Notes: generated by a model from the sequence alone, not told the origin. A stretch of 64,000 bases of DNA from Dehalococcoidia bacterium (GCA_022825745.1 JAJDWF010000114.1:4515-68514), one strand, 5' to 3'. Positions 5,208 to 56,284 are shown, counted from the first letter of the stretch. Program-made: numbers and translations.

Positions 5208-5310
5208 AAATCAGCGTTCCTTCGTGCAATGATGCGGCCATTGTAGCACCGGGCGGCTGACGTGAACGGCGCCCGGGCGCAGCGCGGCGTTGTGCTATAT
5301 TCCAAGCTCA

Positions 5311-5342
5311 CCAGCCGAGTTCTGATCCCGCCAGCCGAGTTC
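5311..5342 (+). promoter_or_regulatory. Two perfect 12-bp direct repeats (ccagccgagttc) spaced 20 bp start-to-start, upstream of ORF 5399
   Basis: Seen directly at 5311-5322 and 5331-5342, just downstream of a tatatt -10-like hexamer (about 5296-5301). Confidence 0.3.
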
Positions 5343-5398
5343 CGAGGTCACTACCATTGCTTTACGAAGTTGAAGTTGTCGCCGACGGCAACAGCCCC

Positions 5399-5740
5399 AT
5401 GGATCTCAACCGGGTGTTCGACCTGCTCACGGACCCGCAACCCGTGTTGCGCATCGTCGCGCCGGATCCGATGGGCAACGACGTGTGGTGCGACGTCACC
5501 GGATGGGAGAACGGCGCGCCCTGCCCGGCCATGGCCGCGCTGTCCGAGGATTCCGGCGAGGGGGTCATCATGCTGATCTACGGCGGCGAGGACGGCATCC
5601 GGCTCAAGCCGGCGGAGGACTCTACAGCCTGGGACGCCGATGCCATCGACCAGTGGGGCGAAGCCTGCCTCATGCTGGGCAGCGACGTTGAAGTCGAGTA
5701 CGCGCCGGCGGGCTGGGATTTCTCGCAACACCCGCACTGA
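5399..5740 (+). CDS. Hypothetical small acidic protein
   Basis: Track ORF 5357..5740 starts at TTG; the internal ATG at 5399 is preferred. Strong GC3 codon bias supports coding. No family recognised. Confidence 0.5.
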   Translation: MDLNRVFDLLTDPQPVLRIVAPDPMGNDVWCDVTGWENGAPCPAMAALSEDSGEGVIMLIYGGEDGIRLKPAEDSTAWDADAIDQWGEACLMLGSDVEVEYAPAGWDFSQHPH

Positions 5741-5751
5741 AGGCCGTAACT

Positions 5752-7041
5752 TCAGCCCGTCGCCTCGGGCGCATTTTCCAGGGGCGCGTCCGGCCACGGT
5801 TCCCGCTCGACTTTCACGTCGGCGGTCAGCGTCTCCAATACCCCGGGGACATCCCGACGGTAGCCGCCCTTGCCGTCCTTGCGCGGGCGCAGCCGGGCCG
5901 CCGGACCGCCGTGCAGCCGCTGGAATGCTTCGTCGTCAGCGGCCGGTGGATTGTCCAGGCAGTCGTCCAGCTCGACGGCCGCCACGTACACCCGCCGGGC
6001 CGAGGAATCGACCTGACGCTGCATGATCTCGCGGTACAGTCGCCAGCACGCGGAACTCTCCAGGGCGTCGCTTGAGCACAGCAGGGCCACGCGGTCGTAA
6101 TCGCGGAACCGGCTCATGGGCGGGATGACCTGCGAGTTGTAGATGGTTTCCTCGTCGTCGGCCAGCAGGCTCCAGCATTGCAGGCCTCTCTGGCGCAATT
6201 CTCCTTCCAGCCAGGCTACGATGGTGGCGTCCACCACCGACGCGATGAGCAGGACCCGGCGGTGCGGAGTTTCCTGGCGGAGCAGCAGGGCGTGGCCGTT
6301 GATGAAATCGGGGGGCACACCGGCGGAGCGCAGGAAAATCTCCGGCAGCCCGGCGCCGGACCGGGCCAGCGTATCCGCTCCGACCATGCTGGGGCCTTCG
6401 TGACGCAGGGTGTCCAGCCCCAGGGCCGCGCTCAAATCGCAGTCGGCGAACAGCGTCATGTCCACCACGCCGTCTTCCAGAAGGGTGCGGTCCAGGCGGG
6501 TGCGCACCAGGGACGTGCGGCGCAGGTCGCAGCGGGTCAGGTTGGCGACGTCGAGGCAGGCGGCGTTGAGGCGCGCGCCGCTCAGGTTGGCGTCGGTAAG
6601 GTCCGACATGGTCAGGTCGGCCTCAGAGAGGTCGGCGCCGGCGAGATTGGCCCCGACCAGCGTGGAGAACGCGATGTCGCAGTTGGTCAGGTTCGCGCCC
6701 CGCAGGTCGGCGTTGTTGAGGTTGCTGCCGCGCAGGTCGGACCGGGTGAAAACGGCGCCCGAGGCGTGGGAATCCTCAAAGTTCGCCCGGTTCAGGTTGC
6801 ACCGGGTCAGGTGGGCCTCGCGCATCCTGGCGCCGTTGAAGTTGCCGTGGCGCAGGTCTGCGGAGGTGAGGTCGATTTCGGTCAGGTCGTCGAAAGCGAG
6901 ATCGACTCCCGGCATTCGGACTCCGCTGAAATAACCGCCCGAAAGGTCCAGGTGCGGCCGGCGCTGGAAGGATCGGGCACGCCAGCGGGCTATGGCGAAG
7001 CTGCGCCCCTTGGCAATGGCAATATGCTCGGGGTTGGCCAA
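5752..7041 (-). CDS. Pentapeptide-repeat protein with C-terminal TIR-like domain
   Basis: Residues about 30-215 are tandem A(D/N)LxX pentapeptides (ADLRHGNFNGARMREAHLTRCNLNRANFEDS..ADLRGANLTNCDIAFSTLVGANLAGADLSEADLT). The C-terminal part (RRVLLIASVVDATIVAWLEGELRQRGLQCWSLLADDEE..YDRVALLCSSDALESSACWRLYREI) follows the bacterial TIR strand/helix pattern. Confidence 0.6.
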   Translation of the reverse strand: MANPEHIAIAKGRSFAIARWRARSFQRRPHLDLSGGYFSGVRMPGVDLAFDDLTEIDLTSADLRHGNFNGARMREAHLTRCNLNRANFEDSHASGAVFTRSDLRGSNLNNADLRGANLTNCDIAFSTLVGANLAGADLSEADLTMSDLTDANLSGARLNAACLDVANLTRCDLRRTSLVRTRLDRTLLEDGVVDMTLFADCDLSAALGLDTLRHEGPSMVGADTLARSGAGLPEIFLRSAGVPPDFINGHALLLRQETPHRRVLLIASVVDATIVAWLEGELRQRGLQCWSLLADDEETIYNSQVIPPMSRFRDYDRVALLCSSDALESSACWRLYREIMQRQVDSSARRVYVAAVELDDCLDNPPAADDEAFQRLHGGPAARLRPRKDGKGGYRRDVPGVLETLTADVKVEREPWPDAPLENAPEATG

Positions 7042-8243: not shown

Positions 8244-8458
8244 CCAGCCCATGCTCCGCTGTAATAAGATTCGGCGGCGATTATAGCACGGGGCCGGCTA
8301 GGGGCGGAGCCGGCGACCGTCAGGTGGACGAAGCCTGCGTGCCTATATGCTTGCCGTCGCACCTTGCCGGGCGGGGCGCTTTGGTATGAGTTGCTGTAAT
8401 GCGCAATGCTCGTTACGAAAAACGCTGCAATGGGGAGCATATTCTACGAAACGTCAAA

Positions 8459-8488
8459 TTGACAGCCAAATCGGGGTAAATATACAAT
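8459..8488 (+). promoter_or_regulatory. Sigma70-like promoter candidate for the ABC substrate-binding gene
   Basis: TTGACA (8459-8464), 18-nt spacer, TACAAT (8483-8488). GGAGGG SD before ATG 8526. Confidence 0.3.
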
Positions 8489-8525
8489 CCGCGCCAGCCT
8501 TAAATTTGTTGGAGGGTCGGATAAG

Positions 8526-10379
8526 ATGCCCAGTCTTCGTAAGTTTGGCAGAGCCATTGCACTCCCCGCCTTGACGCTGATTTTGCTGCTGGCGTTCGCC
8601 TGCGGCACCCCGGCGGAACCCATTCCGGTTCCCGCCGAACCCACCGCCGCGCCGGAACCCACCGCCATGCCGTCGGCTACCGAAGCTATGGCGGCCGCCG
8701 CGCCGGCAGCCATGGCCACCGTGGCCGAAGCGGAAGTGGCGCCGCCCATGTCGGAATACTGGAACCCGCCGACCGACTACTACGGCGACCCGGTGTACGG
8801 CGGCACGCTGCGCATCAACTACGAGGACCCGCTGGAGCACGCCAACGCCTGGGGCGCTTTCTCCGGCGTGACGGTGCGCTACCGGACCCCCACGCACAAC
8901 AACCTGGTGGAGACCGACCCCTACGACGACGGGAAAATCATCCCCGACCTGGCCGCCGGCTGGACCAACCACGATGACGGCCAGGGGCTCACGCTGTATT
9001 TCCACGACGGCATCACTTGGCACAACGGGGACGCCTTCACCTGCGAGGACGCCCGTTTCACCCTGGAGACCATGGTGACGGGCAACGGGATTACCGCCAG
9101 CGAGATGCGCGGCAAGCTGGGCTTCCTGGATATAGGCAATTCCAAGTGCGTGGACGACTTGACGCTGGAGTTGCGCTTTGTGGAGCCGAGCGCCACCGCG
9201 CTGCTGGCCTTCACCGACCGGGCCGGTCTGATGTTCAACAAGGCCTGGTTTGAAGCCGGCGGCGAAGAGGCCATGTTCCAGGACGTATCCGTCGGCACCG
9301 GGCCTTTCCGCTGGGAAGAGGGGCAGAGCGTCGGAGTTGACGAGCAGAACTTCGTCAAGAACGACGACTACTTCAAGGACGGCCTGCCCTACGTTGACCG
9401 GGTGGTGGTATTCGGCATCCTGGACGAGTCCATCCAGCAGTCGGTGATGCTGGCCCACCAGACCGACTGGCACTGGGTGCGCAACTTCGGGCAGTACGAC
9501 GCCTACGTGGAGCACCCGCAAATCAGCACGGTGATCCGGGCGACGCGCGGGCATCATTCCCTGTGGCTCAACGCGCGTAACGCGCCCTTTGACAACGTGC
9601 GCGTACGCCAGGCCATCATGATGGGTATCGACCGGGACACCGGCATCAGCATCCTGCAGGCCGGACACGGTTCCGCCGGGTTCCTGATGGCGCCGGGCAG
9701 CCCCTGGAGCTTGGACGAGTCGCAGGGCTGCGCGGTGCCGGGCTGGTGCGCTCCCGCCGACGGCGACTGGGACTCCCGCCGCGCCGAGGCCAAGGCCATG
9801 CTGGAAGCGGAAGGCTTTGACTTCGACAAGACCTACAAGTTCACGGTGGAGGCCGACGCCCAGGTGCAGGCCCGCGCCACGTTCTTCCAAGAACAGTTGC
9901 GCCTGCTGGGGGTACAGACCGACTTCGACCTGGTGGAGACGGTAGCCTACCGCAAGCAGACCTCCGAGGGTTCCTGGGGCGACATCCTGCCGCGCAACGA
10001 CACGATGCCAAGCGACGACCCGGCGCTGGGCATGGGGCACTACTTCCGCTGCGCGTCGCCGAACAACCACTGGACGCCGGGCCTGGACTGCGACGAGAGG
10101 GCGGAAGCGCTGCTGGACCAGGCTTCCACCACCGTTGACCAGGCGCAGCGCAAGGCCATCTCCGACGAGCTGCAGCTCTACGCCATGGAACAGTACTGGA
10201 AGTTCCCGCTGTACTGGGAGCAGGAGGCGGTGGCCTTCTGGCCCGAGGTGCGCGGCTACTTCCACCACCCGCAGCCGTCCAGCTCGTTCCTCCGCTGGGA
10301 ACACCTGTGGATTGACCCGGCCCACGCCGACGATTCGGACAAGGCCGGCCAGACCTCCGGGGTTCCGGGCGGCATCTAG
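8526..10379 (+). CDS. ABC transporter substrate-binding lipoprotein, family 5 (peptide/nickel/opine type)
   Basis: Signal peptide with lipobox LLLAFACG, a Pro/Ala/Thr/Glu-rich (PEPTA-like) linker, then an SBP_bac_5-like body (GGTLRINYEDP..DPY..PDLAAGW). Confidence 0.85.
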   Translation: MPSLRKFGRAIALPALTLILLLAFACGTPAEPIPVPAEPTAAPEPTAMPSATEAMAAAAPAAMATVAEAEVAPPMSEYWNPPTDYYGDPVYGGTLRINYEDPLEHANAWGAFSGVTVRYRTPTHNNLVETDPYDDGKIIPDLAAGWTNHDDGQGLTLYFHDGITWHNGDAFTCEDARFTLETMVTGNGITASEMRGKLGFLDIGNSKCVDDLTLELRFVEPSATALLAFTDRAGLMFNKAWFEAGGEEAMFQDVSVGTGPFRWEEGQSVGVDEQNFVKNDDYFKDGLPYVDRVVVFGILDESIQQSVMLAHQTDWHWVRNFGQYDAYVEHPQISTVIRATRGHHSLWLNARNAPFDNVRVRQAIMMGIDRDTGISILQAGHGSAGFLMAPGSPWSLDESQGCAVPGWCAPADGDWDSRRAEAKAMLEAEGFDFDKTYKFTVEADAQVQARATFFQEQLRLLGVQTDFDLVETVAYRKQTSEGSWGDILPRNDTMPSDDPALGMGHYFRCASPNNHWTPGLDCDERAEALLDQASTTVDQAQRKAISDELQLYAMEQYWKFPLYWEQEAVAFWPEVRGYFHHPQPSSSFLRWEHLWIDPAHADDSDKAGQTSGVPGGI

Positions 10380-10458
10380 CCCGTCCGGGCCGCAACCGCC
10401 TTACCCGTCGGGGTGAACCATCGTTCACCCCGACGCCATTCAAAGGCTGAACCAAGCC

Positions 10459-11421
10459 ATGCGCACTTACCTCCTCCGCCGTCTGGCCCTGTTCGTCCCC
10501 ACCGCCTTCGGGGTGTCAGTCTTCATCTTTCTGATGCTCCACGTGATTCCCGGGGACTACGCCACCACGCTGCTGCTGGGAGGACGGGACCAGGCGCTGG
10601 TGGCCACGGAGGAAGACTTCGCCCGGGTCCGCAACCAGTTGGGGCTGGACAGGCCGTTGCACATCCAGTACGCAACGTGGGCGGCCAAATTAGCGCGCGG
10701 GGACTTGGGAATCTCGTGGATCAACCGCCAGCCGGTGCTGGAGCGGATGCTGCCGCGCATCGCGGTCAGCGCGCAACTGGGCGTAATGGCGGTGCTGATC
10801 GCTTCCATAATCGCCATACCGGGGGGCGTCATCGCGGCGGTGCGGCAGGACACTGTCATCGACTACGTGCTGCGGTTCGTCAGCATGATTTTCGAGTCGA
10901 TGCCCAACTTCTGGATTGGCCTGCTGCTGATAGTGGGCCTGCTGACGATTTTCGACTGGATACCGCCCATTTCATACGCCAACTTGTGGGAAGACCCGTG
11001 GGACAACCTGATGATACTGATCTTCCCAGCAATGGTGGTGGGCGCGCGTAGCTCGGCGGGCATGCTGCGGATGACCCGTTCGTCCGTCCTGGAGGCGCTG
11101 CGGGAGGACTACGTGCGGACTGCCGAGGCCAAGGGCCTGTACCGCAGCCGCATCCTGTTCATTCATGTGTTGCGCAACGCACTGCTGCCGGTGGTTACGC
11201 TGGCCGGCTTTGAAGTCGTGTTCCTGATGGGCGGCCAGGTGGTGGTTGAGCAGGTGTTCAACATTCCCGGCCTGGGCAACCTTTTCATCCAGGCGGTGGG
11301 AGCCCGAGATTTCCCGGTGATACAGGCGATAGTAATGTTCATTGCCGGCGTGGTGCTGGTGGCGAACCTGGTGGTGGACTTGATGTACGCCTGGCTCGAC
11401 CCGCGAATACGGTACACGTAG
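10459..11421 (+). CDS. ABC transporter permease (DppB/OppB-like)
   Basis: MRTYLLRRLALFVPTAFGVSVFIFLMLHVIPGD..; EAA-like loop EDYVRTAEAKGL. Confidence 0.85.
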   Translation: MRTYLLRRLALFVPTAFGVSVFIFLMLHVIPGDYATTLLLGGRDQALVATEEDFARVRNQLGLDRPLHIQYATWAAKLARGDLGISWINRQPVLERMLPRIAVSAQLGVMAVLIASIIAIPGGVIAAVRQDTVIDYVLRFVSMIFESMPNFWIGLLLIVGLLTIFDWIPPISYANLWEDPWDNLMILIFPAMVVGARSSAGMLRMTRSSVLEALREDYVRTAEAKGLYRSRILFIHVLRNALLPVVTLAGFEVVFLMGGQVVVEQVFNIPGLGNLFIQAVGARDFPVIQAIVMFIAGVVLVANLVVDLMYAWLDPRIRYT

Positions 11422-11430
11422 GGGCATGAC

Positions 11431-12342
11431 ATGACGCTGCCCAACATAGCAAGCCAACGGGGCGAATCTGACGGCCAGGCGCTGACCCGGCGCCGGCTGT
11501 CCTTCACCCGTCTCACCCTGCTCTACCTGCGTTCCAAGCCCCTGGGGACGGCCGGCCTGCTGATGGTGCTGGTCGTGGCCGTGGTGGCTATTTTCGCGGC
11601 GGTGATCGCGCCCTTTGACTACCAGGCGCAGAACTACGAAGCGGTGCGCACCTCGCCCAACACGACCTTCCTGTTCGGCACGGACCAGTTCGGACGCGAC
11701 GTATTCTCACGGGTGGTGTACGGGGCGCGCATTTCCCTGATTGTCGGGTTGTTTTCGGTGCTGGCCGGCACGGGAGTGGGCGCGGTGATCGGGCTGTTTT
11801 CGGGCTACTTCATGGGCAAGACGGACGCGGTGATCCAGCGGCTGGTTGACATGTGGATGTCGCTGCCCGACCTGATCTTGGCGCTGGTTTTCGTGGCGGC
11901 GCTGGGCAACTCAATACCCAACATCATCCTGGCCATTGGGGCTACGATTCTGCCCCGGGGCGTGCGGGTCATCCGCTCCTCGACTATCTCGCTGCGGGAA
12001 ACCGACTACGTGATGGCAGCGCGGGCCATCGGGTCTTCGGACCTGCGCATCATCCTGCGGCACATCGCGCCCAACACCATGGCGCCGTTCCTGATCATCA
12101 TGTCCTCGATGTTCGGCACCGCCATTCTGACCGAGGCCGGGCTGAGCTTCCTGGGGCTGGGCATCGCTGAGCCGACGCCGTCGTGGGGCCGGATGCTCAC
12201 GGGCCAGGCGGCGCAGTACCTTTCAACGGCGCCGTGGATCCTGATCTTCCCCGGGCTGGCCATCAGCGTGACCGTGCTGGGGTTCGCCTTCGCCGGCGAC
12301 GCCCTGCGGGACATACTTGACCCCAGGCAGCGCGGACGCTAA
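11431..12342 (+). CDS. ABC transporter permease (DppC/OppC-like)
   Basis: GTDQFGRDVFSRVVYGARISL, DYVMAARAIGSS. Confidence 0.85.
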   Translation: MTLPNIASQRGESDGQALTRRRLSFTRLTLLYLRSKPLGTAGLLMVLVVAVVAIFAAVIAPFDYQAQNYEAVRTSPNTTFLFGTDQFGRDVFSRVVYGARISLIVGLFSVLAGTGVGAVIGLFSGYFMGKTDAVIQRLVDMWMSLPDLILALVFVAALGNSIPNIILAIGATILPRGVRVIRSSTISLRETDYVMAARAIGSSDLRIILRHIAPNTMAPFLIIMSSMFGTAILTEAGLSFLGLGIAEPTPSWGRMLTGQAAQYLSTAPWILIFPGLAISVTVLGFAFAGDALRDILDPRQRGR

Positions 12343-12410
12343 TCTCACCGCCCCAAATCCTGAACACGACCGGGGTTCCGGGATGTCCCGGAATACCGCT
12401 GGAGGGAATC

Positions 12411-13367
12411 GTGCGCAGTATCGACATCCATGCCCACCTGACGCCGCAGTGCTTTTTGCAAGCCATGGCCGCCGGACAGTCCTGGCACGGCGTAAATCCC
12501 GGCGACATGTTCGTCGCGCCCCGCAACGTCTGGACGCCGCAGCAGCGCATCGACGACATGAACTCGCTGGGGGTTGACGTGCAGGTGGTTTCCACGGGCG
12601 CGGCCTTCTACTTCTACGACCGGGACCCGCAGGTCATTTCGGAGATGCACCGGGAGTGCAACGAGGAAGTCCACCAGATGACCATGGACTACCCCGAGCG
12701 GTTCAAGGGTTTCGCTCAAATCCCGATGCAGGACGTGAACACGGCCATCGCCGAGCTGGAGTACGCAGTAACGCAACTGGGCCTGGTGGGGGCGATGATT
12801 AACGACACCGCCAACGGGCTGCCCTACGACGACCCGTCGCTGCTCCCGCTGTGGCGGGCCGCCGAGCAGATGGGCGCGATACTGTTCATCCACCAGCAGG
12901 GCGGCGACACGCTGGTTACGCCGCGCTCCAACCGCTACCACCTGCCCAACACCATCGGCAACCTGGTTGACCGGGCCGTTACCTTCGCGTCGTTCGTGTT
13001 CGGCGGCGTGATGGACAAGTGCCCCGACCTGAAAATCTGCCTGGCCCACGCCGGCGGGTACACTTGCTTCGGCGTCGGGCGCATGGACCGGGGCTGGCAG
13101 GTGCGCTCCGAGGCGCGGGTGAACATCCAGCAGCCGCCCAGCACCTACCTGAACCGCTTTTACTACGACTGCCTGACCCACAGCGAGGCGGCGCTGCGCA
13201 TGGTGATTGACACCGTGGGCATCGACCGGGTGGTATTCGGCACCGACTGGCCGGCGGACATGGCCATCGACCAGCCGGTTTCCTGGGTGCTGGGTTTGGA
13301 AAGCCTGACCCAGGACGAGAAGGATGCCATCCTGTGGAAGAACCTCGAGAAGCTGCTGAACATCTAA
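12411..13367 (+). CDS. Amidohydrolase-2 family protein (ACMSD-like metal-dependent decarboxylase/hydrolase), copy 1
   Basis: MRSIDIHAHLTPQ.., FGTDWPAD; GTG start after GGAGGG. Confidence 0.8.
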   Translation: MRSIDIHAHLTPQCFLQAMAAGQSWHGVNPGDMFVAPRNVWTPQQRIDDMNSLGVDVQVVSTGAAFYFYDRDPQVISEMHRECNEEVHQMTMDYPERFKGFAQIPMQDVNTAIAELEYAVTQLGLVGAMINDTANGLPYDDPSLLPLWRAAEQMGAILFIHQQGGDTLVTPRSNRYHLPNTIGNLVDRAVTFASFVFGGVMDKCPDLKICLAHAGGYTCFGVGRMDRGWQVRSEARVNIQQPPSTYLNRFYYDCLTHSEAALRMVIDTVGIDRVVFGTDWPADMAIDQPVSWVLGLESLTQDEKDAILWKNLEKLLNI

Positions 13368-13375
13368 CGGCCTCC

Positions 13376-13402
13376 GGATTCCCGCTTTCGCGGGAATGAC
13401 GG
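13376..13402. repeat. REP-like hairpin element ggattcccgctttcgcgggaatgacgg (family 2)
   Basis: 8-bp stem attcccgc/gcgggaat with tttc loop (13378-13397). A second copy lies at 37580-37606. Confidence 0.55.
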
Positions 13403-13442
13403 TGCAAATCGGATACAGCCTAATCACGGAGAGGCGCACAAT

Positions 13443-14399
13443 ATGCGAGCCATTGACATTCACGCCCATTCCACGCCCCAGTGCTTCCAGCGCGAGGTAC
13501 TGCAGGGCCGCTCCTGGCACGGCATGACCGCCGCCGAGGGCGAGTTGTTCAACCCGCGCAACGCCTGGACTCCCGAGCAACGCATCGCCGACATGGACTC
13601 CATCGGCGTGGACGTGCAGGTGGTGTCCACCAACGTGGCCTTCTACAAGTACGACCAGGACGTGGACACCACCGTCGCCATCGCCACCGACTGCAACGAT
13701 GAAGTGCACCAGATGACGCTGGACTACCCGGAGCGGCTGGCCGGCCTGGCCACGCTGCCGATGCAGGACGTGAGGGCGGCCATCGCGGAACTGGAGCGCG
13801 CCGTTACTACCCTGGGATTCAAGGGCGCGATGATCAACGACCACGTGAATGGCCGCACCTATGATGACCCGGCGTTTCTGCCCTTCTGGCGGGCGGCGGA
13901 GCAGATGGGCGCCGTGCTGCTGATCCACCAGGCCAATCCGACCATGGTGGCGCCGCGCATCGACCGCTACCACCTGCCCAACACCATCGGCAACCTGGCG
14001 GAGCGCGCCGTCACTTTCGCCTCTTTCGTGTTCGGCGGCGTCATGGACCAGTGTCCCGACCTGAAAGTATGCCTGGCCCACGGCGGCGGCTACACCTGCT
14101 TCGGAGCGGGCCGCATGGACCGGGGCTGGCTGGTGCGCCGGGAGGCGAGGGTCAACATCACGCAGCCGCCCAGCGAGTACCTGGACCGCTTCTACTACGA
14201 CTGCCTGACCCACAGCGAGCCGGCGCTGCGGATGCTGATTGACACGGTGGGCATCGACCGGGTGGTGCTGGGCACGGACTGGCCGGCGGACATGATGATC
14301 GACTGGCCGGTGGGGTGGGTGATGGGCCTGCCGTCGCTGACGCAGGATGAGAAAGAAGCGATCCTGTGGAAGAACCTGGAGAAGCTGTTGGGGCTTTAG
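13443..14399 (+). CDS. Amidohydrolase-2 family protein (ACMSD-like), copy 2 (tandem paralog)
   Basis: Collinear with copy 1 over all 318 aa (roughly two thirds identical by eye): MRAIDIHAHSTPQ.., LGTDWPAD. Confidence 0.8.
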   Translation: MRAIDIHAHSTPQCFQREVLQGRSWHGMTAAEGELFNPRNAWTPEQRIADMDSIGVDVQVVSTNVAFYKYDQDVDTTVAIATDCNDEVHQMTLDYPERLAGLATLPMQDVRAAIAELERAVTTLGFKGAMINDHVNGRTYDDPAFLPFWRAAEQMGAVLLIHQANPTMVAPRIDRYHLPNTIGNLAERAVTFASFVFGGVMDQCPDLKVCLAHGGGYTCFGAGRMDRGWLVRREARVNITQPPSEYLDRFYYDCLTHSEPALRMLIDTVGIDRVVLGTDWPADMMIDWPVGWVMGLPSLTQDEKEAILWKNLEKLLGL

Positions 14400-14547
14400 G
14401 CTGGTGGCGTTTCCTTCCGGCAATACGCCATACCTCGCATCATGAGGTCGCCTGTGACAGAGTCAAAGCTGAAGTTGATGGAATCCCGATGCCGGACAAC
14501 AAAAGGATTTTGCTCTAGCTGGATGTCTTGGATGGTCCGGTAGCGGT

Positions 14548-14790
14548 CTAGTGACTGCCATCCGTTTGGGTCCGCTCTTTGAGGGATTCCAAGGCGCGAT
14601 AGGCGAAACACCATTTGAGTACCTCGGCAGTTTCCGGTATTTCGCCCCATTCGATGAGCGCGGCCATTCGCTCGCTGGGCATTTCGTAGCGCTGTTCGTA
14701 GTCGGCGATTTCGGCTTGCAACTCCGCCATCATTTCAGCGCGGGAAACTCTGCGTACGGGAATGCCAGTGGTAGTTTCGGTGGTGGTCAT
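14548..14790 (-). CDS. Small hypothetical protein, antitoxin-like (80 aa)
   Basis: ATG at 14790 is preceded by GGAGGT. The helical acidic sequence EMMAELQAEIADYEQRYEMPSERMAALIEWGEIPETAEVLKW resembles small TA antitoxin-type proteins. No family firmly recognised. Confidence 0.4.
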   Translation of the reverse strand: MTTTETTTGIPVRRVSRAEMMAELQAEIADYEQRYEMPSERMAALIEWGEIPETAEVLKWCFAYRALESLKERTQTDGSH

Positions 14791-14904
14791 TGGGACCTCC
14801 ATTGAAAGAAGAGGAACTATCTGGGTAACGTGCTCGATTGTAGCAGACATCGTCCCTGTTCAGATGACCAGGCTCGCACTGCCGGCGGCGGAGTTGGGAA
14901 AGGG

Positions 14905-15290
14905 TCATGGGATTGCATCTGGGTTGATTGTCTAAATCGGGATTTACGGGATTTCAGGATTGGCAGGATTGGGTAGTGTGGTGGCGATTTTTGGAAATCC
15001 CGCTCATTTCCGCTCACTTCCGTTTATTTGAGTAGGGCGCTGGTGCGGGATGTGAGGGTAAATGGGGGCGGATTGGGCCGGTTTTGGAGGTGATGAAGGT
15101 GGTTTTGGCGGGCCGGTGAGAGGATTTGGGGGAGCGGCGTTTGGTGTTGGGCATTGGACGGCTCTGGGGTTGAGCGCTGGGTTGGATGTAAGTGGTTGGG
15201 TAGTTAAATGGTACGGATGGGTTGCGGGTTAAGGCAAGGGGGAAGTGTCACTGGGCAGCGTTCCCTAAAGGATGGTGATTATGGTGTGTG
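14905..15290. repeat. Non-coding, strongly G/T-rich (C-poor) tract with same-orientation GGATT(T/G)G repeats, including four tandem 9-mers
   Basis: Four tandem 9-mers: 14938-14973 cgggattta/cgggatttc/aggattggc/aggattggg. Further GGATT copies at about 14909, 15070 and 15121. A 10-bp tandem (c)cgctcattt/ccgctcactt lies at 15000-15020. Stops in all frames beyond 15017. Confidence 0.6.
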
Positions 15291-15304
15291 CCCGCCACAC
15301 GCGA

Positions 15305-15313
15305 TGGTATAAT
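15305..15313 (+). promoter_or_regulatory. Extended -10 promoter element (TGgTATAAT) for the TIR-like gene
   Basis: tggtataat at 15305-15313, 55 nt upstream of ATG 15369. The inverted repeat gtgtg-cccgc-cacac (15286-15300) sits where a -35 would be. Confidence 0.4.
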
Positions 15314-15368
15314 CAGAACGGGCTTGCGGGTTGCCGCAGGGTACGAATTAGCCACCGAGGTTTGCACG

Positions 15369-16199
15369 ATGATGAAGCCGACTAAAGCGCAAGCGAAAGA
15401 CCGTATTCAGCGGACATTGGATACGATACCAGCATTGATGTCAATGTCCTATTCTTCCCAAGAATTCACAAAATGGCACCGAACCGCGGAAATAGCCATA
15501 CAGAATACTTTCGGAGAAAACTCACAACATATCGAAACATTCAAAGAAATCCGATACACCCCAAGGTCGTTCATTATTGGAGCACCCGATCACCAAGTCC
15601 AAGCAGCATATAGACAATCCTATGTGTCTGGCCTAAAACGTGTCGAGGCCATCCTAGAATCGATGATTGAAGAAATTGAGGAGTATTGGCAGGACGACGT
15701 TCAACCGCAAACTACGAACGGGCAAGCGAGCGTGGACGAACCGATTGCCGCAAACCGAGTGTTCGTCGTTCACGGGCGGGATGAAGCAGCTACTCAAACG
15801 ATGGCGAGGTACATTGAAGGTCTGGGGCTGGAGCACGTCATATTACGAGAACAGCCCAGCGAAGGCCGCACGGTAATCGAGAAGTTTGAGGAATATGCTC
15901 AAGTGGGGTTCGCAGTTGTGCTGTGTACACCGGACGACGTGGGCGCACTTGAGAATGAACAAGACAACCTGAAACCGCGTCCGCGCCAGAACGTGGTTTT
16001 CGAGTGGGGATTCTTTCTGGGGAAGATCGGTCGCAACCGAGTGTGCGCTCTGTTCAAGGAAGGTGTCGAAATACCGTCGGACTACGCCGGCGTTATCTAC
16101 ATACAGATGGACGATTTCGGCGGCTGGCGGATGGAGTTGGCCAAAGAGTTGAAAGCGGCAGGGATGCAGGTTGACATGGACCGCCTTTTATCAACCTAA
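15369..16199 (+). CDS. TIR-like domain protein of the CAP12/PycTIR (COG4271, predicted nucleotide-binding TIR-like) family with an unassigned helical N-terminal domain
   Basis: The C-terminal half RVFVVHGRDEAATQTMARYIEGLGLEHVILREQPSEGRTVIEKFEEYAQVGFAVVLCTPDDVG..RPRQNVVFEWGFFLGKIGRNRVCALFKEGVEIPSDYAGVIYI matches my recollection of the family signature (vFivHG..LheqpnqGrTiiEK..FAvvLlTPDD..RaRQNVifElGyf.GkLGr.rV..l...v.iPSD..Gv.Y). ATG at 15369 follows a GAGG SD. The gene is visibly AT-richer than its flanks. Confidence 0.75.
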   Translation: MMKPTKAQAKDRIQRTLDTIPALMSMSYSSQEFTKWHRTAEIAIQNTFGENSQHIETFKEIRYTPRSFIIGAPDHQVQAAYRQSYVSGLKRVEAILESMIEEIEEYWQDDVQPQTTNGQASVDEPIAANRVFVVHGRDEAATQTMARYIEGLGLEHVILREQPSEGRTVIEKFEEYAQVGFAVVLCTPDDVGALENEQDNLKPRPRQNVVFEWGFFLGKIGRNRVCALFKEGVEIPSDYAGVIYIQMDDFGGWRMELAKELKAAGMQVDMDRLLST

Positions 16200-16217
16200 C
16201 CCCTACTAACCCACCCC

Positions 16218-19100
16218 CTACAACCGGCGGTTGGTTATTACCGGCTCGGAGGCGAGGAGGCGGCGCAGGCCGTCGAGGTTGGGCAGGTGCAGGATTTCGG
16301 AGAGGCCGTTGTCGAGGCGGCGGCGGGTGGGGCAGTCGGTCATGGCGGGCAGGCGCTGGAATTCGTCATCGGCTATGTGGTCGAAGAGCTGGGACAGGGC
16401 TTGCAGTTGTTCGAGGGTGATGGCGCGCACGTCCAGCGTGGGCAGCTGTTCCAGGTCGGCTTTTTTCATGCCTACCCAACTGCCTTCCGTGCTGGTGCGC
16501 TGCGCCACGATGGTCAGCAGGCCCAAACTGGAATTTAGCCATACGGCCAACGCTTTCTCGTGGGAAATCTCGTCAATCTTGATGGGCCACCACACGTTGG
16601 ACAGCACCCTGGTGTCGGTTCGCATCGCGATTACTCTGGTGGTATTCAGCCGCAATCGTTCGGCGACAAGCAGCCGGCCGGCTTGACGCCATAAGTGTTC
16701 GCCATAGCCCGGACGCTGTCCGCCTTTGGGAGTGACCAACGGAGATAGATAGGCATCCGGAGCGCAAACTAAAGACTTATGCTGTTCGGTATCGTGTCCT
16801 TCCACCATTGGATAGGCGGTCTGAACGGTAGTCCGCTCGAACCCATCGACTAACCGCCTCCGATCAGGGCCGATTTCGCCGAGTTCGGTTAATGGGCAGA
16901 GGGGGATTTGGCCGACGGTTGACTCGCCGGGAACCCACACCTCGCCGTCGTCGAGCAGGCGCAATGCGGCGCGAGTCAAGTCGGCGCGGGCGAACTGCAC
17001 GCCGGCCCATTTCTTGCCAACGAGCCTGGATTCGGGGATGGATACCAGTTCGCCGACGTGCCGGCCGTCCACTTCCACCAGGGCGGCGCCGGTGTTTTCA
17101 ATGTTGGCCGGCGTGGTGTCGGCGATGGCTTGAGCGGCGCGGTGGGCGTCCAGCACGCCGGCGGGGTTTTGCCACAGGCTGACGAAAGTGGTGCGATGTT
17201 CCTCACCGTCGTCGTTGCCGTTGGCGGGACGGCGGCGGGTGGCAATCAGCAGGGCTTCGGACAAGTCGGTGCTGTCGGAAAAGTTCCAGCGCGTCGGGTC
17301 GTGGGAGACGATGACTATGTCCAGGGTAAAGTCGCGTTCGATGAGGGAACGGGTCTGCTGCCAGGAGGGGCCGGTGCAGACGGTGGCCGGCAGAACCAGG
17401 GCCAGGCGTCCCTCGCCGGGGCGCAGCTTGGGAGACGCAGCGGCCACGAAAGCAGCGCCGAGGCCGGCGGTTGCCGTCGCCTGCCGCGACCTGAGGCGTC
17501 GGGAAAGTTCGTCTTGCAGCCGGCGGCGGTCGGCGGCGGGCAGGCTGCCGAACAGCAGGTTGCCGCCCACGGAGCGGGTGAAGGGCGGATTCATAATCGC
17601 CAGGTCCAGGTCGGGCAGCGTGGCGAGTTCTTGCTGTTCCGCGCCCTTGGAGCCGCCGCCATAGACCCGGCCGGCATCGCGAATCGTGCGGCCGCTGACG
17701 CCCATGCCGGCCGGGGACAGCGCGAACTGGACCGCCGCCTGCGATTCCCCCAGGAAGTCCAGTGAGCCCAGGGATACGTCGTCGCCGTCGGCCCCCAGGG
17801 GCATCACGTAGAGGTTGATGCGGTCAAACTGGATCTCGGGGTTCAGCATCGCCAGACTGGTGGCGGCGAAATGCACGGCGGAGAGTTGAACGTCGTAACC
17901 GTGCAGGGCTTGTTCCACCATCGCTTTGTGCAGGGCCGGAGCGTTCTGACCGCCGGCCTCGGTGTGGCGGCGTTCCGCTTCGGCGGCCACGGCCATCAGC
18001 AGGGTACCGGTGCCGCAGGCAATGTCGGCGACGTTGAGAGACGCGGGAAACTCGTGGTGGCTCCAGTCAACTCCCTGCGGCCAGTCGTGGAACACCAGCC
18101 GCGTGAGCAGCGTCGCCGCCGGGACGGAGGTGTAATAGGCGCCAGTGAATTTGGCGTCGGTGAGCAGCGTGTGGAAGAGCCGGCCCGACAGGTCGTGTCC
18201 CGCCAGGTGGCTGGTGTCTTCCACCGCCTTGAGGATTGGCTCCATCACCGGGCCGTGCCAGAGGTGTGGCAGGTCGGCATAGTCCAGGATGGTCAGCATT
18301 CTTTTGGCAAGGTCGAACACCGGCACGTAGTCGATGGTTTCGCAGATGTGATCCCAAACCTTCAGCAGCCCGGGCACACCGCCATCCCGCCAGGTTTCGG
18401 CAACGGTGGGTACAGCGTCATTGGTGGACGCGAGGCGCAAATGGAAGGCCAGGGCGTTGAATATGACCAGGCAGCCGATGCGCAGGGCCTTGGCGCGGTC
18501 AGTTTCCCGGTCGGTCTGGGCGATGGCCTCCCTGACCAGGCGGGCCAGCCGGGCATAGGTGGCGAGTTTGGCCGCCGATTGCTCGACGGCGTGCTCGATG
18601 ACGGCGGCGGCGGCGACCACGCGGTCGGTGCCCTCCAGTTCCAGCGGCAACACGCGCAAGTGGTCGGCGATCTCGGCGGGAGAGCCGAACCGGGAGCGTA
18701 ATTCGTCAACCGGTTCGCCCCGGGAACCGTGCAGCCACCATTCAAGGTCGCCGGCGTGTTCAAGCCCCTCGCGGGTATCCTCCAGGTATTTCAACCCCTC
18801 CGGGTAAAGGACGCCGATAACGCCCAGCGCGTCAGGGAACTGCTGCAATCGAGTGTCCAGCTGGCTTTCCAACTGGCCGACGGAATCCTCCCACTTGCAT
18901 TCCAGCAGCACGGTGTCCCCGGTCTTCAGCGTGATGCGAACGTCGGGAGTCGTGTTGCGGTTGCGCCGTTCGGCGCGGGCGGGTATGCCCTGGTCCCGGA
19001 GCAGTTGGGCGAGGAACGTGTTGACCGCTTCCTCGCGGATGACTTCCCGGCCTCCGTTGCCGGGTAGAGTGGCGTTGCGGTTTCGTCGTGGTCGAGGCAT
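16218..19100 (-). CDS. Single-chain type IIG-like restriction-modification enzyme: N-terminal PD-(D/E)xK nuclease-like domain + gamma-class N6-adenine DNA methyltransferase + C-terminal TRD-like region
   Basis: TPDVRITLKTGDTVLLECKWE (PD-x13-ExK); YYTSVP (motif X-like); VADIACGTGTLLMA (motif I); LAIMNPPFTRS (motif IV, NPPF). The C-terminal 300 aa end in a TRD-like LNSSLGLL..LEQLPTLD pattern. Confidence 0.7.
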   Translation of the reverse strand: MPRPRRNRNATLPGNGGREVIREEAVNTFLAQLLRDQGIPARAERRNRNTTPDVRITLKTGDTVLLECKWEDSVGQLESQLDTRLQQFPDALGVIGVLYPEGLKYLEDTREGLEHAGDLEWWLHGSRGEPVDELRSRFGSPAEIADHLRVLPLELEGTDRVVAAAAVIEHAVEQSAAKLATYARLARLVREAIAQTDRETDRAKALRIGCLVIFNALAFHLRLASTNDAVPTVAETWRDGGVPGLLKVWDHICETIDYVPVFDLAKRMLTILDYADLPHLWHGPVMEPILKAVEDTSHLAGHDLSGRLFHTLLTDAKFTGAYYTSVPAATLLTRLVFHDWPQGVDWSHHEFPASLNVADIACGTGTLLMAVAAEAERRHTEAGGQNAPALHKAMVEQALHGYDVQLSAVHFAATSLAMLNPEIQFDRINLYVMPLGADGDDVSLGSLDFLGESQAAVQFALSPAGMGVSGRTIRDAGRVYGGGSKGAEQQELATLPDLDLAIMNPPFTRSVGGNLLFGSLPAADRRRLQDELSRRLRSRQATATAGLGAAFVAAASPKLRPGEGRLALVLPATVCTGPSWQQTRSLIERDFTLDIVIVSHDPTRWNFSDSTDLSEALLIATRRRPANGNDDGEEHRTTFVSLWQNPAGVLDAHRAAQAIADTTPANIENTGAALVEVDGRHVGELVSIPESRLVGKKWAGVQFARADLTRAALRLLDDGEVWVPGESTVGQIPLCPLTELGEIGPDRRRLVDGFERTTVQTAYPMVEGHDTEQHKSLVCAPDAYLSPLVTPKGGQRPGYGEHLWRQAGRLLVAERLRLNTTRVIAMRTDTRVLSNVWWPIKIDEISHEKALAVWLNSSLGLLTIVAQRTSTEGSWVGMKKADLEQLPTLDVRAITLEQLQALSQLFDHIADDEFQRLPAMTDCPTRRRLDNGLSEILHLPNLDGLRRLLASEPVITNRRL

Positions 19101-19188
19101 GGCTGCGGTTCCTCTTGATTCGGCGCATCATAGCAAAATTACCCGCTATAATCGCTGCATCCGAAAATGTAGCGAGGGAGGCAATCCC

Positions 19189-19965
19189 ATGGATTTGACC
19201 CTGAACGGGAAGGTAGCAATTATCACCGGCGGCAGCCGCGGTTTGGGTCGCCAGTGCGCGTTGGCGCTGGGGCAGGAAGGCTGCGCCGTGGGCATCTGCG
19301 GACGCGACAGCGACCAGGTGGGCAGGACGGTGGCGGAACTCCAGGGCCTGGGCATCAAGGCCAGCGGCAGCCAAGCCGACGTCACCAACCAGGACGACGC
19401 GGCCCGCTTTTTGCAGGAAACGACCGACGCGCTGGGCGCGCCGGACATCCTGGTGAACAACGTGGGCGGCCGGCGCGGTTCCGTGCTTTTCGACGAGACC
19501 TCCATGGAGCAGTTTCTGGAGGGGCTGGAGGTCAACCTGATCTCCGCGGTGCGGATGACCAAGCTGGCCTTGCCGCACATGCAGGCCCAGGGCTGGGGCC
19601 GCGTCATCAACATCGCGTCGATCTACGGCCGCGAGCACGGCGGGTCGGTGGACTACATGACGGGCAAGGCGGGGATGATCGCGTTTTCCAAGCACCTGGC
19701 GCTGCAACTGGCGCAGACCGGCGTGCTGGTCAACTGCGTCGCGCCCGGCAGCATCGACTTTCCCGGCAGCAGTTGGGACCGCTTCCAGCAGAACAACACC
19801 CCCGAGGTGGTGGCCGAGTTCATCGACCGCAACCTGCCCATGGGCAAGTTCGGCTGGCCGGAACCCATCGGCGAGACGGTGGCGTTCCTGGCCTCGGACC
19901 GGGCCGGGCTGATCACCGGCGCGTGCATCAACGTGGACGGCGGGCAGTCGAAATCGCTGTTCTAG
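19189..19965 (+). CDS. SDR family oxidoreductase (FabG-like)
   Basis: MDLTLNGKVAIITGGSRGLGR (TGxxxGxG), NNVG, and a YxxxK region (YMTGKAG). GAGGGAGG SD; TATAAT at 19146-19151. Confidence 0.85.
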   Translation: MDLTLNGKVAIITGGSRGLGRQCALALGQEGCAVGICGRDSDQVGRTVAELQGLGIKASGSQADVTNQDDAARFLQETTDALGAPDILVNNVGGRRGSVLFDETSMEQFLEGLEVNLISAVRMTKLALPHMQAQGWGRVINIASIYGREHGGSVDYMTGKAGMIAFSKHLALQLAQTGVLVNCVAPGSIDFPGSSWDRFQQNNTPEVVAEFIDRNLPMGKFGWPEPIGETVAFLASDRAGLITGACINVDGGQSKSLF

Positions 19966-21174: not shown

Positions 21175-21327
21175 CTGCTTAAACCTCCGGTTCCCGTTTC
21201 GGATGCGGCCATCATAGCACCTGATATACCGACGCGGGGAATCGCATTTGCCTGCCTTGTCGTTAGCAAATACAATGGAGCGTAGTGCGGATAATTGATC
21301 ACCGGCGCGCCTCGCAATGGACAGGCT

Positions 21328-21621
21328 GTGCATATCATAGCGAAAAGGACACTCAGGGAATTTTGGGAGACACATCCTGATGCTGAAACTGCGCTCCGGG
21401 ATTGGCACTCGGAAGTCGAACGAGAGGATTGGGCAACGCCGGCTCACCTACGCCAGCGTTATCCCAACGCCAGTATTATCGGCAGAGATCGCGCGGTTTT
21501 CAGGATCAGAGGCAACAATTATCGGCTGGTCGTGAGGATTTTCTATCCGGCCCGTACAGTGTATATCCGGTTCGTGGGAACCCACGCAGAATACAACCGC
21601 ATCAACGTCGCGGAGGTCTAA
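21328..21621 (+). CDS. higB: Type II toxin HigB (HigB/RelE-fold mRNA interferase)
   Basis: VHIIAKRTLREFWETHPDAETALRDWHSEVEREDWATPAHLRQRYPNASIIGRDRAVFRIRGNNYRLVVRIFYPARTVYIRFVGTHAEYNRI matches the HigB-toxin family pattern. GTG start at 21328. Confidence 0.75.
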   Translation: MHIIAKRTLREFWETHPDAETALRDWHSEVEREDWATPAHLRQRYPNASIIGRDRAVFRIRGNNYRLVVRIFYPARTVYIRFVGTHAEYNRINVAEV

Positions 21622-21623
21622 CA

Positions 21624-21839
21624 ATGGCAAGCCTAAACCCCATTTGTACAGAAGCCGACTATGACTCCGCGTTGGCGCGGGTCACTGTGCTCATGGACGC
21701 CCTTACTACCCCGGACGGCCAGATTGACGACGTAGATCATCCCAGCCGGGTTGAGTTGGATGAGCTCGTAGCCCTAATTGAGGCGTATGAGGACGAACAC
21801 CATCCTATCGGAACTCCCAACCCGGCTGCTGCCATCTAG
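21624..21839 (+). CDS. higA: HigA-family antitoxin, N-terminal fragment only (71 aa, no HTH domain)
   Basis: MASLNPICTEADYDSALARVTVLMDALTTPDG..ELDELVALIEAYEDEHHPIGTPNPAAAI* matches the N-terminal part of COG5499-type HigA. The ORF stops where the Xre-type HTH normally begins, and overlaps the 3' end of narK. Confidence 0.55.
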   Translation: MASLNPICTEADYDSALARVTVLMDALTTPDGQIDDVDHPSRVELDELVALIEAYEDEHHPIGTPNPAAAI

Positions 21840-56255: not shown

Positions 56256-56284
56256 TTGCCCACTGGTGATAGCGGTGGTATAAT
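56256..56284 (+). promoter_or_regulatory. Promoter candidate with extended -10 (TTGCCC-17-TATAAT, TGg upstream) ahead of nusA
   Basis: ttgccc at 56256-61; tggtataat at 56276-84. Confidence 0.35.

Follow-up and report, generated by a model that had tools for sequence, protein, structure and literature searches.

A PDC-S35-type TIR gene beside a type IIG-like nuclease-methyltransferase gene in a Dehalococcoidia bacterium: two defence-type genes that are probably neighbours and not partners

Do a gene for a TIR-domain protein and the gene of a restriction-type enzyme that faces it belong to one defence system, or are they two genes that happen to be neighbours? This question is raised by a locus of Dehalococcoidia bacterium (GCA_022825745.1 JAJDWF010000114.1:4515-68514; these 64,000 nucleotides are called the window), at positions 14,400 to 19,188. 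The TIR gene encodes a protein of 276 aa; the 960-aa nuclease-methyltransferase fusion and its gene are both referred to as BIG, and related loci or contigs bear L-numbers. A preliminary description, made from the DNA of the window, had raised the possibility of a sensor-effector module co-localised with a restriction-modification (RM) gene on an islet unrelated to its flanks. The comparison of both genes with their relatives leads to another reading, which we consider rather probable: they are two autonomous defence-type genes, neighbours and not partners, BIG being a resident type IIG-like gene and the TIR gene an acquired member of the PADLOC family PDC-S35, lodged in a cargo slot. This reading is built on: (i) the domains and the conserved catalytic residues of the two proteins; (ii) the own promoter and the foreign composition of the TIR gene; (iii) its presence/absence polymorphism and its lack of a recurrent partner; (iv) the modularity of its N-terminal domain.

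The TIR gene is a 303-aa open reading frame (ORF; 15288-16199, + strand). Translation probably begins at the ATG of position 15369, with GAGG 8 nt upstream, leading to 276 aa; this ATG fits the length and the N-termini of the homologs. The sole Pfam domain of the protein is PF10137 (E 1.2e-37, 128.9 bits vs. a gathering threshold of 24.7, profile 1-118/119, residues 157-275 of the 303-aa ORF), and the corresponding TIR domain occupies aa 129-276 (15753-16199 with the stop codon, + strand). The only significant sequence relatives in the PDB are TIR-STING/Cap12 (9lmq, 7un8) and PycTIR (8jsj). Foldseek against the PDB places TIR-STING first (probability 1.0), then SARM1, the SPARTA TIR, DNPH1 and other TIR/flavodoxin-like folds, all matches being confined to the C-terminal domain. 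With PF10137 at E 1e-37 and TIR-STING as the best PDB match in both sequence and fold, the CAP12/Pycsar-type TIR domain announced beforehand is confirmed. NVVFEWG of the TIR protein aligns with NVVFEFG of 9lmq and 7un8, E212 (codon 16002-16004) being the counterpart of their Glu; the T(K/P)DD motif likewise aligns with Cap12/TIR-STING and PycTIR. Ten residues of the TIR domain are invariant in 46 homologs: T187, D189, D190, R204, R206, Q207, N208, V209, E212 and G214.

The protein as a whole matches PDC-S35, i.e., the PADLOC profile PDLC05005 (E 6.7e-85, residues 39-300 of the 303-aa ORF, profile 6-262/264) and four further PDC-S35 hidden Markov models (HMMs; E 2.5e-74 to 3.9e-42). The CBASS «Effector» and PycTIR models of PADLOC match the TIR core only (PycTIR: E 3e-9, residues 194-275), as do the NCBIfam Cap12 equivalogs (37-44 bits vs. 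a cut-off of 450). Thus the gene, from a combination that was not at first recognised as a named system, is already catalogued as a full-length PDC-S35 member, and its product may be considered a candidate one-protein abortive-infection factor. PADLOC took its PDC candidates from genes lying within loci of type I RM, BREX and DISARM (Payne et al. 2024 preprint, 10.1101/2024.01.29.577857). PDC-S35 is not among the candidates tested in PMC12881386. In a recent survey of TIR systems of bacteria, «TIRs found in standalone proteins» were explicitly left aside, being regarded as effectors that likely deplete NAD+; the category is thus a recognised one. A word-index search gives 5348 homologs at E<=1e-3; the best 120 are mostly ~270 aa long and cover nearly the whole query, and the closest among the matches listed is at most 77% identical. 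PDC-S35-like genes annotated «nucleotide-binding protein» are also found on plasmids of Burkholderia pseudomallei (L171, 4857-6697) and Pseudomonas avellanae (L172, 4845-6685). On both, the tyrosine recombinase gene lying downstream overlaps the last 4 nt of the PDC-S35-like gene, an arrangement thus kept across the two genera.

The association of the two genes can be judged from either side. A genome scan with BIG gives at least 218 relatives, and the locus counts cover the best 80; these come nearly all from Chloroflexota, Dehalococcoidia or SAR202 metagenome-assembled genomes (MAGs), with one labelled Bryobacterales, some genomes hold two copies, and the contexts of the gene are many and varied. 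The TIR-family HMM finds a match in five of the 80 loci (L007, L013, L051, L081 and, truncated, L008), the other 75 having none; among metagenome contigs of close relatives, the pair is found in L001, L002, L005 and L006 and not in L003 and L004. From the side of the TIR gene, a BIG homolog occurs in none of 80 metagenomic loci (homologs 37-62% identical). Among the 150 neighbours of these 80 homologs, no PADLOC or Pfam family is represented by more than three genes and no cyclase recurs; the scattered neighbours include genes for methyltransferases, PD-T4-6 kinases and integrases, as well as PLD or helicase genes. In the window itself no cyclase and no cyclic-nucleotide sensor domain adjoins the TIR gene, as had been noted, although the rest of the 64 kb was not scanned exhaustively.

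The closest relatives are still more telling. In L169 and L170, BIG is 98% identical in protein and the flanks are 95-97% identical in nucleotides. The order there is SDR gene, BIG, a 115-nt stump of the TIR gene 3' end and the amidohydrolase stop region, without any equivalent of window positions ~14408-16085. Since BIG is intact beside this deletion, the TIR gene is dispensable for BIG. The stump is 90% identical to the TIR allele of L005 and gives no blastn match to that of the window: the gene has been lost within a group that is probably a single species, and TIR alleles are exchanged. In the paired loci, TIR proteins are 65-71% identical to that of the window and the linked BIG proteins 84-89%. 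An obligate TIR plus RM system is rejected on the basis of the counts (5/80 and 0/80) and of the natural deletion in L169 and L170, and a conserved two-gene system fails for the same reasons. The pairing is facultative, and the two genes look like independent neighbours, not like a new two-gene system. The neighbourhoods of homologs, which were to decide the matter, speak in two ways: no partner is conserved in general, while PF10137 genes do recur at the 3' end of BIG, as discussed below.

The composition of the two genes is also different. The TIR gene has a GC content of 0.51 vs. 0.644 for the window, i.e., it is AT-richer, as described, and its GC content at third codon positions (GC3) is 0.56. 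The same holds for all seven TIR/BIG pairs, in which TIR genes have GC 0.49-0.535 and GC3 0.48-0.60, and BIG genes GC 0.62-0.67 and GC3 0.71-0.82. The TIR gene is thus horizontally acquired, with a foreign composition. BIG of the window has the values of its host (GC 0.65, GC3 0.80), and its SDR neighbour is kept in relatives. Of the claim that four elements here are unrelated to the flanks, the part concerning the TIR gene stands and that concerning BIG does not: BIG is a resident backbone gene, the TIR gene alone is foreign cargo, and the islet is smaller than was proposed.

The TIR gene was also said to have its own extended -10 promoter, and this is borne out. The conserved TIR module has its 5' edge at the element TGGTATAAT (15305-15313, + strand), a motif that does not vary in five relatives. 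Its pattern, TGNTATAAT, has three copies in the 64 kb (8280-8288, - strand; 15305-15313, + strand; 56276-56284, + strand) vs. 0.16 expected. The sequence ATGGTATAATC is invariant in L001, L005, L006 and L013, the DNA upstream of it is unrelated among relatives, and blastn homology of the TIR module to relatives begins at 15301. As the conserved module starts just before ATGGTATAATC and what precedes is unrelated, the TIR gene brings its own promoter. The copy at 8280-8288 lies ~28 nt upstream of a luciferase-like gene, so that the promoter type appears to be native; extended -10 elements may be in common use as promoters in this organism.

The N-terminal domain of the TIR protein (N-domain; aa 1-114, 15369-15710, + strand) is a putative sensor, regulatory or oligomerisation domain. 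In the AlphaFold2 model of the protein (mean predicted local distance difference test score, pLDDT, 83; predicted TM-score, pTM, 0.50), helices at residues 1-106 are followed by a disordered linker (112-125) and then by the alpha/beta domain. The N-domain has five predicted helices, with pLDDT mostly 84-97, and W36, R38 and F48 are invariant in the 46 homologs. It matches no Pfam family, hence none of the STING, SAVED, CARF and cNMP-binding families. The description of a helical domain of no assigned family fused to TIR is therefore right. A word-index search with the N-domain only gave three matches, and an exhaustive phmmer search was used instead; with residues 1-114 it gives 572 cluster representatives at E<=1e-3. 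Among 40 longer matches, PF10137 is found in 22, TIR_2 in three and a DpnII-MboI restriction endonuclease (REase) in two; a protein kinase, DUF4062, Hypoth_Ymh, AbiJ_NTD4 and PNP_UDP_1 are found once each. The family phrog_29450 matches the N-domain alone (aa 2-125), and a search of the viral fold library with the TIR model added nothing on this domain. The N-domain is thus a shuffled module, combined with different effector-type domains; this suggests the pattern typical of single-chain sensor-effector conflict proteins.

BIG (16218-19100, - strand; 960 aa) is a type IIG-like fusion. Its parts are, in this order: a PD-(D/E)xK nuclease, a helical linker, a gamma-class N6-adenine methyltransferase and a ~320-aa C-terminal putative target-recognition region. 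Three motifs are invariant in 32 homologs: PD...ExK (P52 D53 ... E67 C68 K69; 18894-18947, - strand), the S-adenosylmethionine-binding motif I NVADIACGTGT (residues 356-366; 18003-18035, - strand) and the catalytic motif IV NPPF of N6-adenine methyltransferases (residues 504-507; 17580-17591, - strand). Since motif I precedes motif IV, the order is that of the gamma class. BIG has more than 1000 homologs, with a Pfam domain in none. Full-length homologs of 34-36% identity lie on mobilizable plasmids of Sulfuricystis and Aminobacter (one is annotated «N-6 DNA methylase»), and they retain D plus ExK, motif I and NPPF. Proteins of haloarchaeal viruses, annotated «type IIG restriction modification enzyme», are 26% identical to residues 22-641 (E 6e-25). 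Library matches are weak: MTS, E 7e-4; PADLOC MTase_II, E 3e-7; REase_MTase_IIG, E 3e-4; BREX PglX, E 0.009-0.05; MAD2, 23 bits for a cut-off of 720. No BREX, MADS or DISARM gene flanks BIG in the window, and the PDB sequence search with BIG gave no match.

The AlphaFold2 model of BIG, built on a shallow alignment (32 sequences, all at least 68% identical), is poor: mean pLDDT is 56, only residues 20-300 are confident, and the methyltransferase and C-terminal parts are below 50. Foldseek with this low-confidence model gives BpuSI (3s1s), DrdV (7lvv) and BsaXI on top (probability 0.72-1.0, TM-score ~0.13), followed by methyltransferases, PglX and LlaBIII. The C-terminal region (~320 aa, pLDDT <50) matches no family and diverges in a paralog at a contig end (L005 1-942, + strand), which is 26% identical to region 670-929 of BIG. 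A second full-length family member is found in tandem in L058 (8999-12028, + strand; E 4e-109). These divergent paralogs may be variants with other specificities. Taken together, the invariant motifs, the type IIG matches of Foldseek and the halovirus homologs uphold the single-chain type IIG-like layout first described, and layout and motifs support BIG as an enzyme of this kind with a putative restriction activity. In one subclade (L021, L036, L039, L060 and L068, ~5000-5980), a ~146-aa gene with a helix-turn-helix (HTH) of XRE type lies directly upstream of BIG, in the same orientation; a ~148-aa nucleotidyltransferase-like gene comes before the HTH gene in L036, L060 and L068. To judge from the sequences, this pair looks like a toxin-antitoxin module.

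The place where the TIR gene lies is variable. The synteny group of the window consists of SDR, BIG, the slot, the luciferase-like gene and a pentapeptide-TIR_2 protein gene. In L001 and L007 the TIR gene shares the slot with Uma2; L013 has the TIR gene there, L008 a truncated TIR gene, and L010, L012, L014 and L015 have PaREP1 or small ORFs. In L004, at the same convergent position as the TIR gene, the slot holds an unrelated 225-aa protein with several hydrophobic segments (10886-11563, - strand; no PADLOC match, sub-threshold Pfam match to DUF3426, E 0.006), which may be an alternative membrane effector. The ORFs downstream of BIG in the related loci include PDC-S35 (4), PDC-S15 (3), PDC-S03 (3), HEC-01A, AbiLi and PDC-M41A (2), together with a mad3-like ATPase (L048), PDC-S37/Hhe (L086), PDC-M11A (L063) and Uma2, FRG and NYN domains. 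We therefore favour the view that the 3' flank of BIG is a hotspot of defence cargo and that PF10137 genes are one recurrent cargo.

How the two genes would work can be proposed as follows. The gamma-class methyltransferase of BIG, together with its C-terminal recognition region, would mark host DNA at adenine, and its N-terminal PD-ExK nuclease would cut unmodified incoming DNA. The helical N-domain of the TIR protein would restrain the CAP12-type TIR domain, and an infection cue would lift this restraint. Oligomerisation of the TIR domains would follow, as in TIR-STING, for which filament assembly or oligomerisation followed by NAD+ hydrolysis is described in the literature; the domains would hydrolyse NAD+ by means of E212 and stop the infected cell. 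No cyclic-nucleotide signal would be involved, and the TIR gene would be transcribed independently of BIG. We thus infer a defence phenotype for the TIR gene, and a restriction activity with its specificity for BIG.

Several points weigh against the reading as two autonomous defence genes. For the TIR protein, both the proposed NADase activity and its trigger are deduced from homology; PADLOC describes its 145 PDC candidates as untested (10.1101/2024.01.29.577857), and a text search of the literature for «PDC-S35» gives no paper. For BIG, the poor model (mean pLDDT 56, TM-score ~0.13) makes the fold matches merely suggestive, and the protein is far under the threshold of every curated type IIG, MmeI and PglX model. 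BIG is moreover unusually conserved for a restriction enzyme: identity is 63-98% among the homologs and loci listed, and ~70-75% for the C-terminal region. Finally, in all five BIG loci with a match, the PF10137 gene is the first gene at the 3' end of BIG, and none occurs elsewhere within ±6 kb. This recurrence at the first position is more specific than a loose clustering in defence islands, so that some functional link may exist.

The points on BIG lead to the first rival explanation, i.e., that BIG is not a restriction enzyme but a methyltransferase conserved in the lineage, with a nuclease-fold domain that does not restrict (e.g., with an epigenetic, repair or BREX-like role). This would agree with the conservation across Dehalococcoidia genomes, C-terminal region included, with the native composition, with the presence of two copies in some genomes, and with the lack of both an above-threshold type IIG match and a PDB match. 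However, the catalytic residues of PD..ExK do not vary, down to plasmid homologs of 34-36% identity, and the patchy and varied contexts, with homologs on mobilizable plasmids and in haloviruses, are those of a mobile RM gene. The paralogs diverge mainly in the C-terminal region (the L005 one) or stand in tandem (L058), and defence candidates cluster at the 3' end of BIG. A BIG without restriction activity is consequently considered improbable, though it is the alternative that survives best.

The recurrence at the first position leads to the second one. Suicide-type effectors that watch a restriction enzyme have a precedent in PrrC, the anticodon nuclease tied to the type Ic enzyme EcoprrI. 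By analogy, the TIR protein would be a back-up suicide effector that watches BIG, or is held latent by it, and fires when an anti-restriction factor of a phage disables BIG. The module of both genes (15301-19112) is indeed intact and convergent, with a gap of 3-33 nt, in at least three arrangements of the flanks (the window, L001/L007 and L005/L006). Two more independent pairings involve divergent PF10137 proteins: L051, whose sister L079 is without such a gene, and L081, whose sister L050 is without it too. There are thus three independent contexts for PF10137 beside BIG. As each locus has ~12 flanking positions, three independent events at the first downstream position are unlikely by chance, ~(1/12)^3 by a rough estimate. 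It should be added that the PDC set was itself drawn from genes lying inside RM, BREX and DISARM loci, and that PrrC is hardly ever met outside type I RM.

The counts are nevertheless opposed to such a guard, 75 of the 80 BIG loci lacking the TIR gene and no TIR locus of 80 having BIG. BIG is intact where the TIR gene is deleted or truncated (L008, L169 and L170). The three BIG-adjacent TIR proteins have three N-terminal architectures, i.e., the PDC-S35 N-domain, an AAA_assoc_C-type one in L051 and a longer protein with PF10137 at 167-298 in L081, which leaves them no interaction surface in common except the TIR domain itself. The two genes converge and do not form one transcription unit, their compositions point to different histories, and the same slot holds many unrelated defence candidates. 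A guard function is accordingly judged unlikely, a little more so than a BIG without restriction activity. A broader speculation, which we regard as equally doubtful, is that PF10137 TIR proteins are specifically recruited to the 3' end of the BIG family as a second, PrrC-like suicide layer that senses the state of the enzyme and, separately, that the N-domain is an undescribed, widely shuffled phage-sensing module that, with no second messenger, serves effectors of the TIR, REase, HEPN-like, PNP and kinase types.

The TIR gene could also have no anti-phage role and be a selfish, addiction-type or nucleotide-processing cargo of mobile elements. Homologs of the same architecture do lie on the small Burkholderia and Pseudomonas plasmids, directly before the tyrosine recombinase gene and with the 4-nt overlap; integrases are among the few recurrent neighbours (3/150); and the fold neighbours include nucleoside 2-deoxyribosyltransferase (NDT) and DNPH1-type hydrolases. 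The likeness to defence TIR effectors is, however, much stronger than that to NDT or DNPH1, the family was found by the approach of PADLOC, i.e., among genes embedded in defence loci, and the N-domain also occurs in proteins of REase, HEPN-like and AbiJ type, such as conflict systems typically contain; a selfish cargo is therefore very unlikely. Least probable of all is an orphan CBASS or Pycsar effector answering a cyclic (oligo)nucleotide whose cyclase would be encoded at another place of the genome: CBASS (Cap12/TIR-STING) and Pycsar (PycTIR) do draw effectors from this TIR family, but the ~110-aa all-helical N-domain matches no Pfam family, those of sensors included, and is also fused to non-TIR effectors, no cyclase is adjacent or recurrent among the 150 neighbours, the Cap12 equivalogs match the core only and far below their cut-off, and PADLOC models PDC-S35 as a single gene.

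With two autonomous neighbours retained as the preferred reading, the rest of the locus can be described. An 80-aa antitoxin-like ORF is present (14548-14790, - strand; open to 14850), the ATG at 14790, with the ribosome-binding site GGAGG, being the likely start; its resemblance to antitoxins, put forward in the preliminary description, is weak (TumA, E 0.013; PDC-M44A, E 1e-3). Homologs occur in L005 (1031-1309, 92 aa) and L004 (12297-12569, 90 aa), each followed by a conserved partner gene of 113 or 121 aa. The partners of these two pairs (L005 1031-1686 and L004 12297-12949) have the common motif LLLKYHNLH...YxHRVYDP...YQFPTFPEVLDELE. The partner gene was not found in the window, where homology stops at 14484 and tblastn gives no match. 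Neither the 80-aa protein nor the partner convincingly matches any PADLOC family. The 80-aa gene is thus the orphaned half of an uncharacterised two-gene module whose partner is lost; in L005 and L004 the pair may be an uncharacterised toxin-antitoxin or defence pair.

Between this gene and the TIR gene lies a non-coding stretch rich in G and poor in C (14851-15300; G 182 vs. C 70, GC skew up to 0.44), in agreement with the strand skew reported for it. The iterons also reported there are limited to a 9-nt unit repeated 2.0 times and a 10-nt unit repeated 2.3 times (Tandem Repeats Finder scores 36-39). Since the coding part of BIG yields three like arrays, they are background-level short repeats. 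No Rfam family matches the stretch. Its part 14998-15260 shares 72% of its nucleotides with L003 2019-2283, where a 181-aa ORF adjoining DDE transposases has its 5' part; the copy of the window is frameshifted. A replication-type element with iterons is consequently rejected (two-copy repeats of 9-10 nt, no Rfam family, frameshifted ORF remnant). The stretch is specific to the window, not being present in any TIR-carrying relative, and is most likely the decayed remnant of an inserted element. The 80-aa gene and the stretch are thus debris of other cargo. The GC content drops from ~0.65 to 0.475-0.55 across 14400-16200.

The borders of the flanks are as first given: the pair of amidohydrolase paralogs (12411-13367 and 13443-14399, both PF04909) ends at 14399 and the SDR gene (PF00106/PF13561) starts at 19189. 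The two paralogs, in tandem, are ~76-77% identical in nucleotides; L005 has one complete copy only. Among relatives, two pieces are variable, i.e., the slot that holds the TIR gene and a 6-kb ABC-transporter/amidohydrolase block (8413-14399). The latter lies on the other side of BIG in L005, L006 and L009 and is not at the corresponding place in L001, L004, L007 and others: it is moved or lost through rearrangement around BIG. As its position varies, the supposed metabolic flank is itself a rearranged piece, and BIG plus SDR are the stable backbone. The window has no tRNA genes and no integrase ORF was seen adjoining the islet; an island bounded by either is thus rejected.

The convergence of the TIR gene and BIG is as reported, with stops at 16199 and 16218 and a spacer of 18 nt (16200-16217), inside a short tandem repeat (16192-16225). 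In relatives the gap is 3-33 nt; relative to them, the window has a 24-nt insertion, which makes the 15-nt tandem repeat CAACCCAACCCCTA (2.4 copies). No intrinsic terminator is predicted in the spacer 16200-16217, so that the convergent transcripts may overlap. Two other parts of the window deserve mention. A HigB-type toxin gene (21295-21621, + strand; PF09907, E 1.6e-29) is overlapped by a small ORF (21618-21839, + strand), probably for a HigA-like antitoxin, with a weak match of its product to the N-terminus of PD-Lambda-2_B (E 1.7e-8); GC also dips, to 0.54-0.56, in this region (21295-21839). A second TIR-domain gene lies ~8 kb off (5752-7041, - strand), with pentapeptide repeats followed by a weak TIR_2 match (E 3e-5, below the Pfam cut-off). 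Since it is kept beside the luciferase-like gene in ~11 related loci, it is a backbone gene and not cargo.

The locus does not overturn current ideas. It provides a natural example of PDC-S35 with a defined promoter, a mutable catalytic residue (E212) and isogenic-like comparators (L169 and L170) that lost the gene. The N-domain is a reasonable target for learning what stand-alone TIR proteins sense. BIG represents an uncharacterised type IIG-like family that is widespread in Dehalococcoidia/SAR202-type MAGs, some labelled Chloroflexi or Chloroflexota isolates and bearing names of sponge-metagenome type, and the cargo slot at its 3' flank could be mined for more defence candidates.

When compared with known systems, the TIR gene is closest to PDC-S35: the likeness lies in the full-length HMM match, in the architecture, with a helical N-domain of variable sequence ahead of the PF10137 TIR domain, and in the adjoining RM-type gene. 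Nothing structural differs, the protein of the window being a Chloroflexota member of the family, and the absence of a recurrent partner among the 150 neighbours together with the own conserved promoter agrees with a single-gene system. Cap12/TIR-STING (7un8, 9lmq) and PycTIR (8jsj) belong to the same PF10137 family, with the catalytic Glu of NVVFE(F/W)G aligned, and the chemistry likely to be shared, by analogy, is NAD+ hydrolysis after oligomerisation. Unlike them, the protein of the window has no STING, SAVED or transmembrane domain, and its TIR domain is C-terminal, behind a helical domain of ~110 aa. CBASS has a CD-NTase in the same operon and a STING or SAVED sensor fused to TIR; here the neighbours are the antitoxin-like ORF, the amidohydrolases, BIG and SDR, and no such sensor is fused. 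The adjacent PycC and the cNMP-binding domain of the effector, which characterize Pycsar, are absent as well. Thoeris does not apply either, the TIR domain being PF10137 and not ThsB, with no PADLOC Thoeris match and no adjacent ThsA-type effector gene. The TIR protein thus probably acts like the NADase effectors of CBASS and Pycsar, but without a second messenger.

BIG resembles type IIG/IIL enzymes (BpuSI, DrdV, MmeI family) in the order of its parts, in its length (~950 aa) and in being a stand-alone gene without separate methyltransferase or specificity gene; nuclease and methyltransferase are found in one chain, at the level of motifs. It differs from curated type IIG and MmeI enzymes in that its best PADLOC type IIG match is at E 3e-4, Pfam MmeI domains are absent and the C-terminal region has no recognisable target recognition domain (TRD) family, and from usual restriction enzymes in its conservation within Dehalococcoidia. 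Matches to BREX (PglX) and MADS (MAD2) are sub-threshold, and no genes of BREX, MADS or DISARM lie on the flanks. The pair resembles PrrC-EcoprrI in that a suicide-type effector gene lies directly beside an RM-type gene, and does so recurrently; it differs in that the effector is a TIR protein and not an anticodon nuclease, is convergent and not embedded in an operon, and is facultative (5/80). Compared with these systems, what is modestly new is that the N-domain is shuffled and that PF10137 genes recur at one particular position beside the BIG family; the rest extends known categories.

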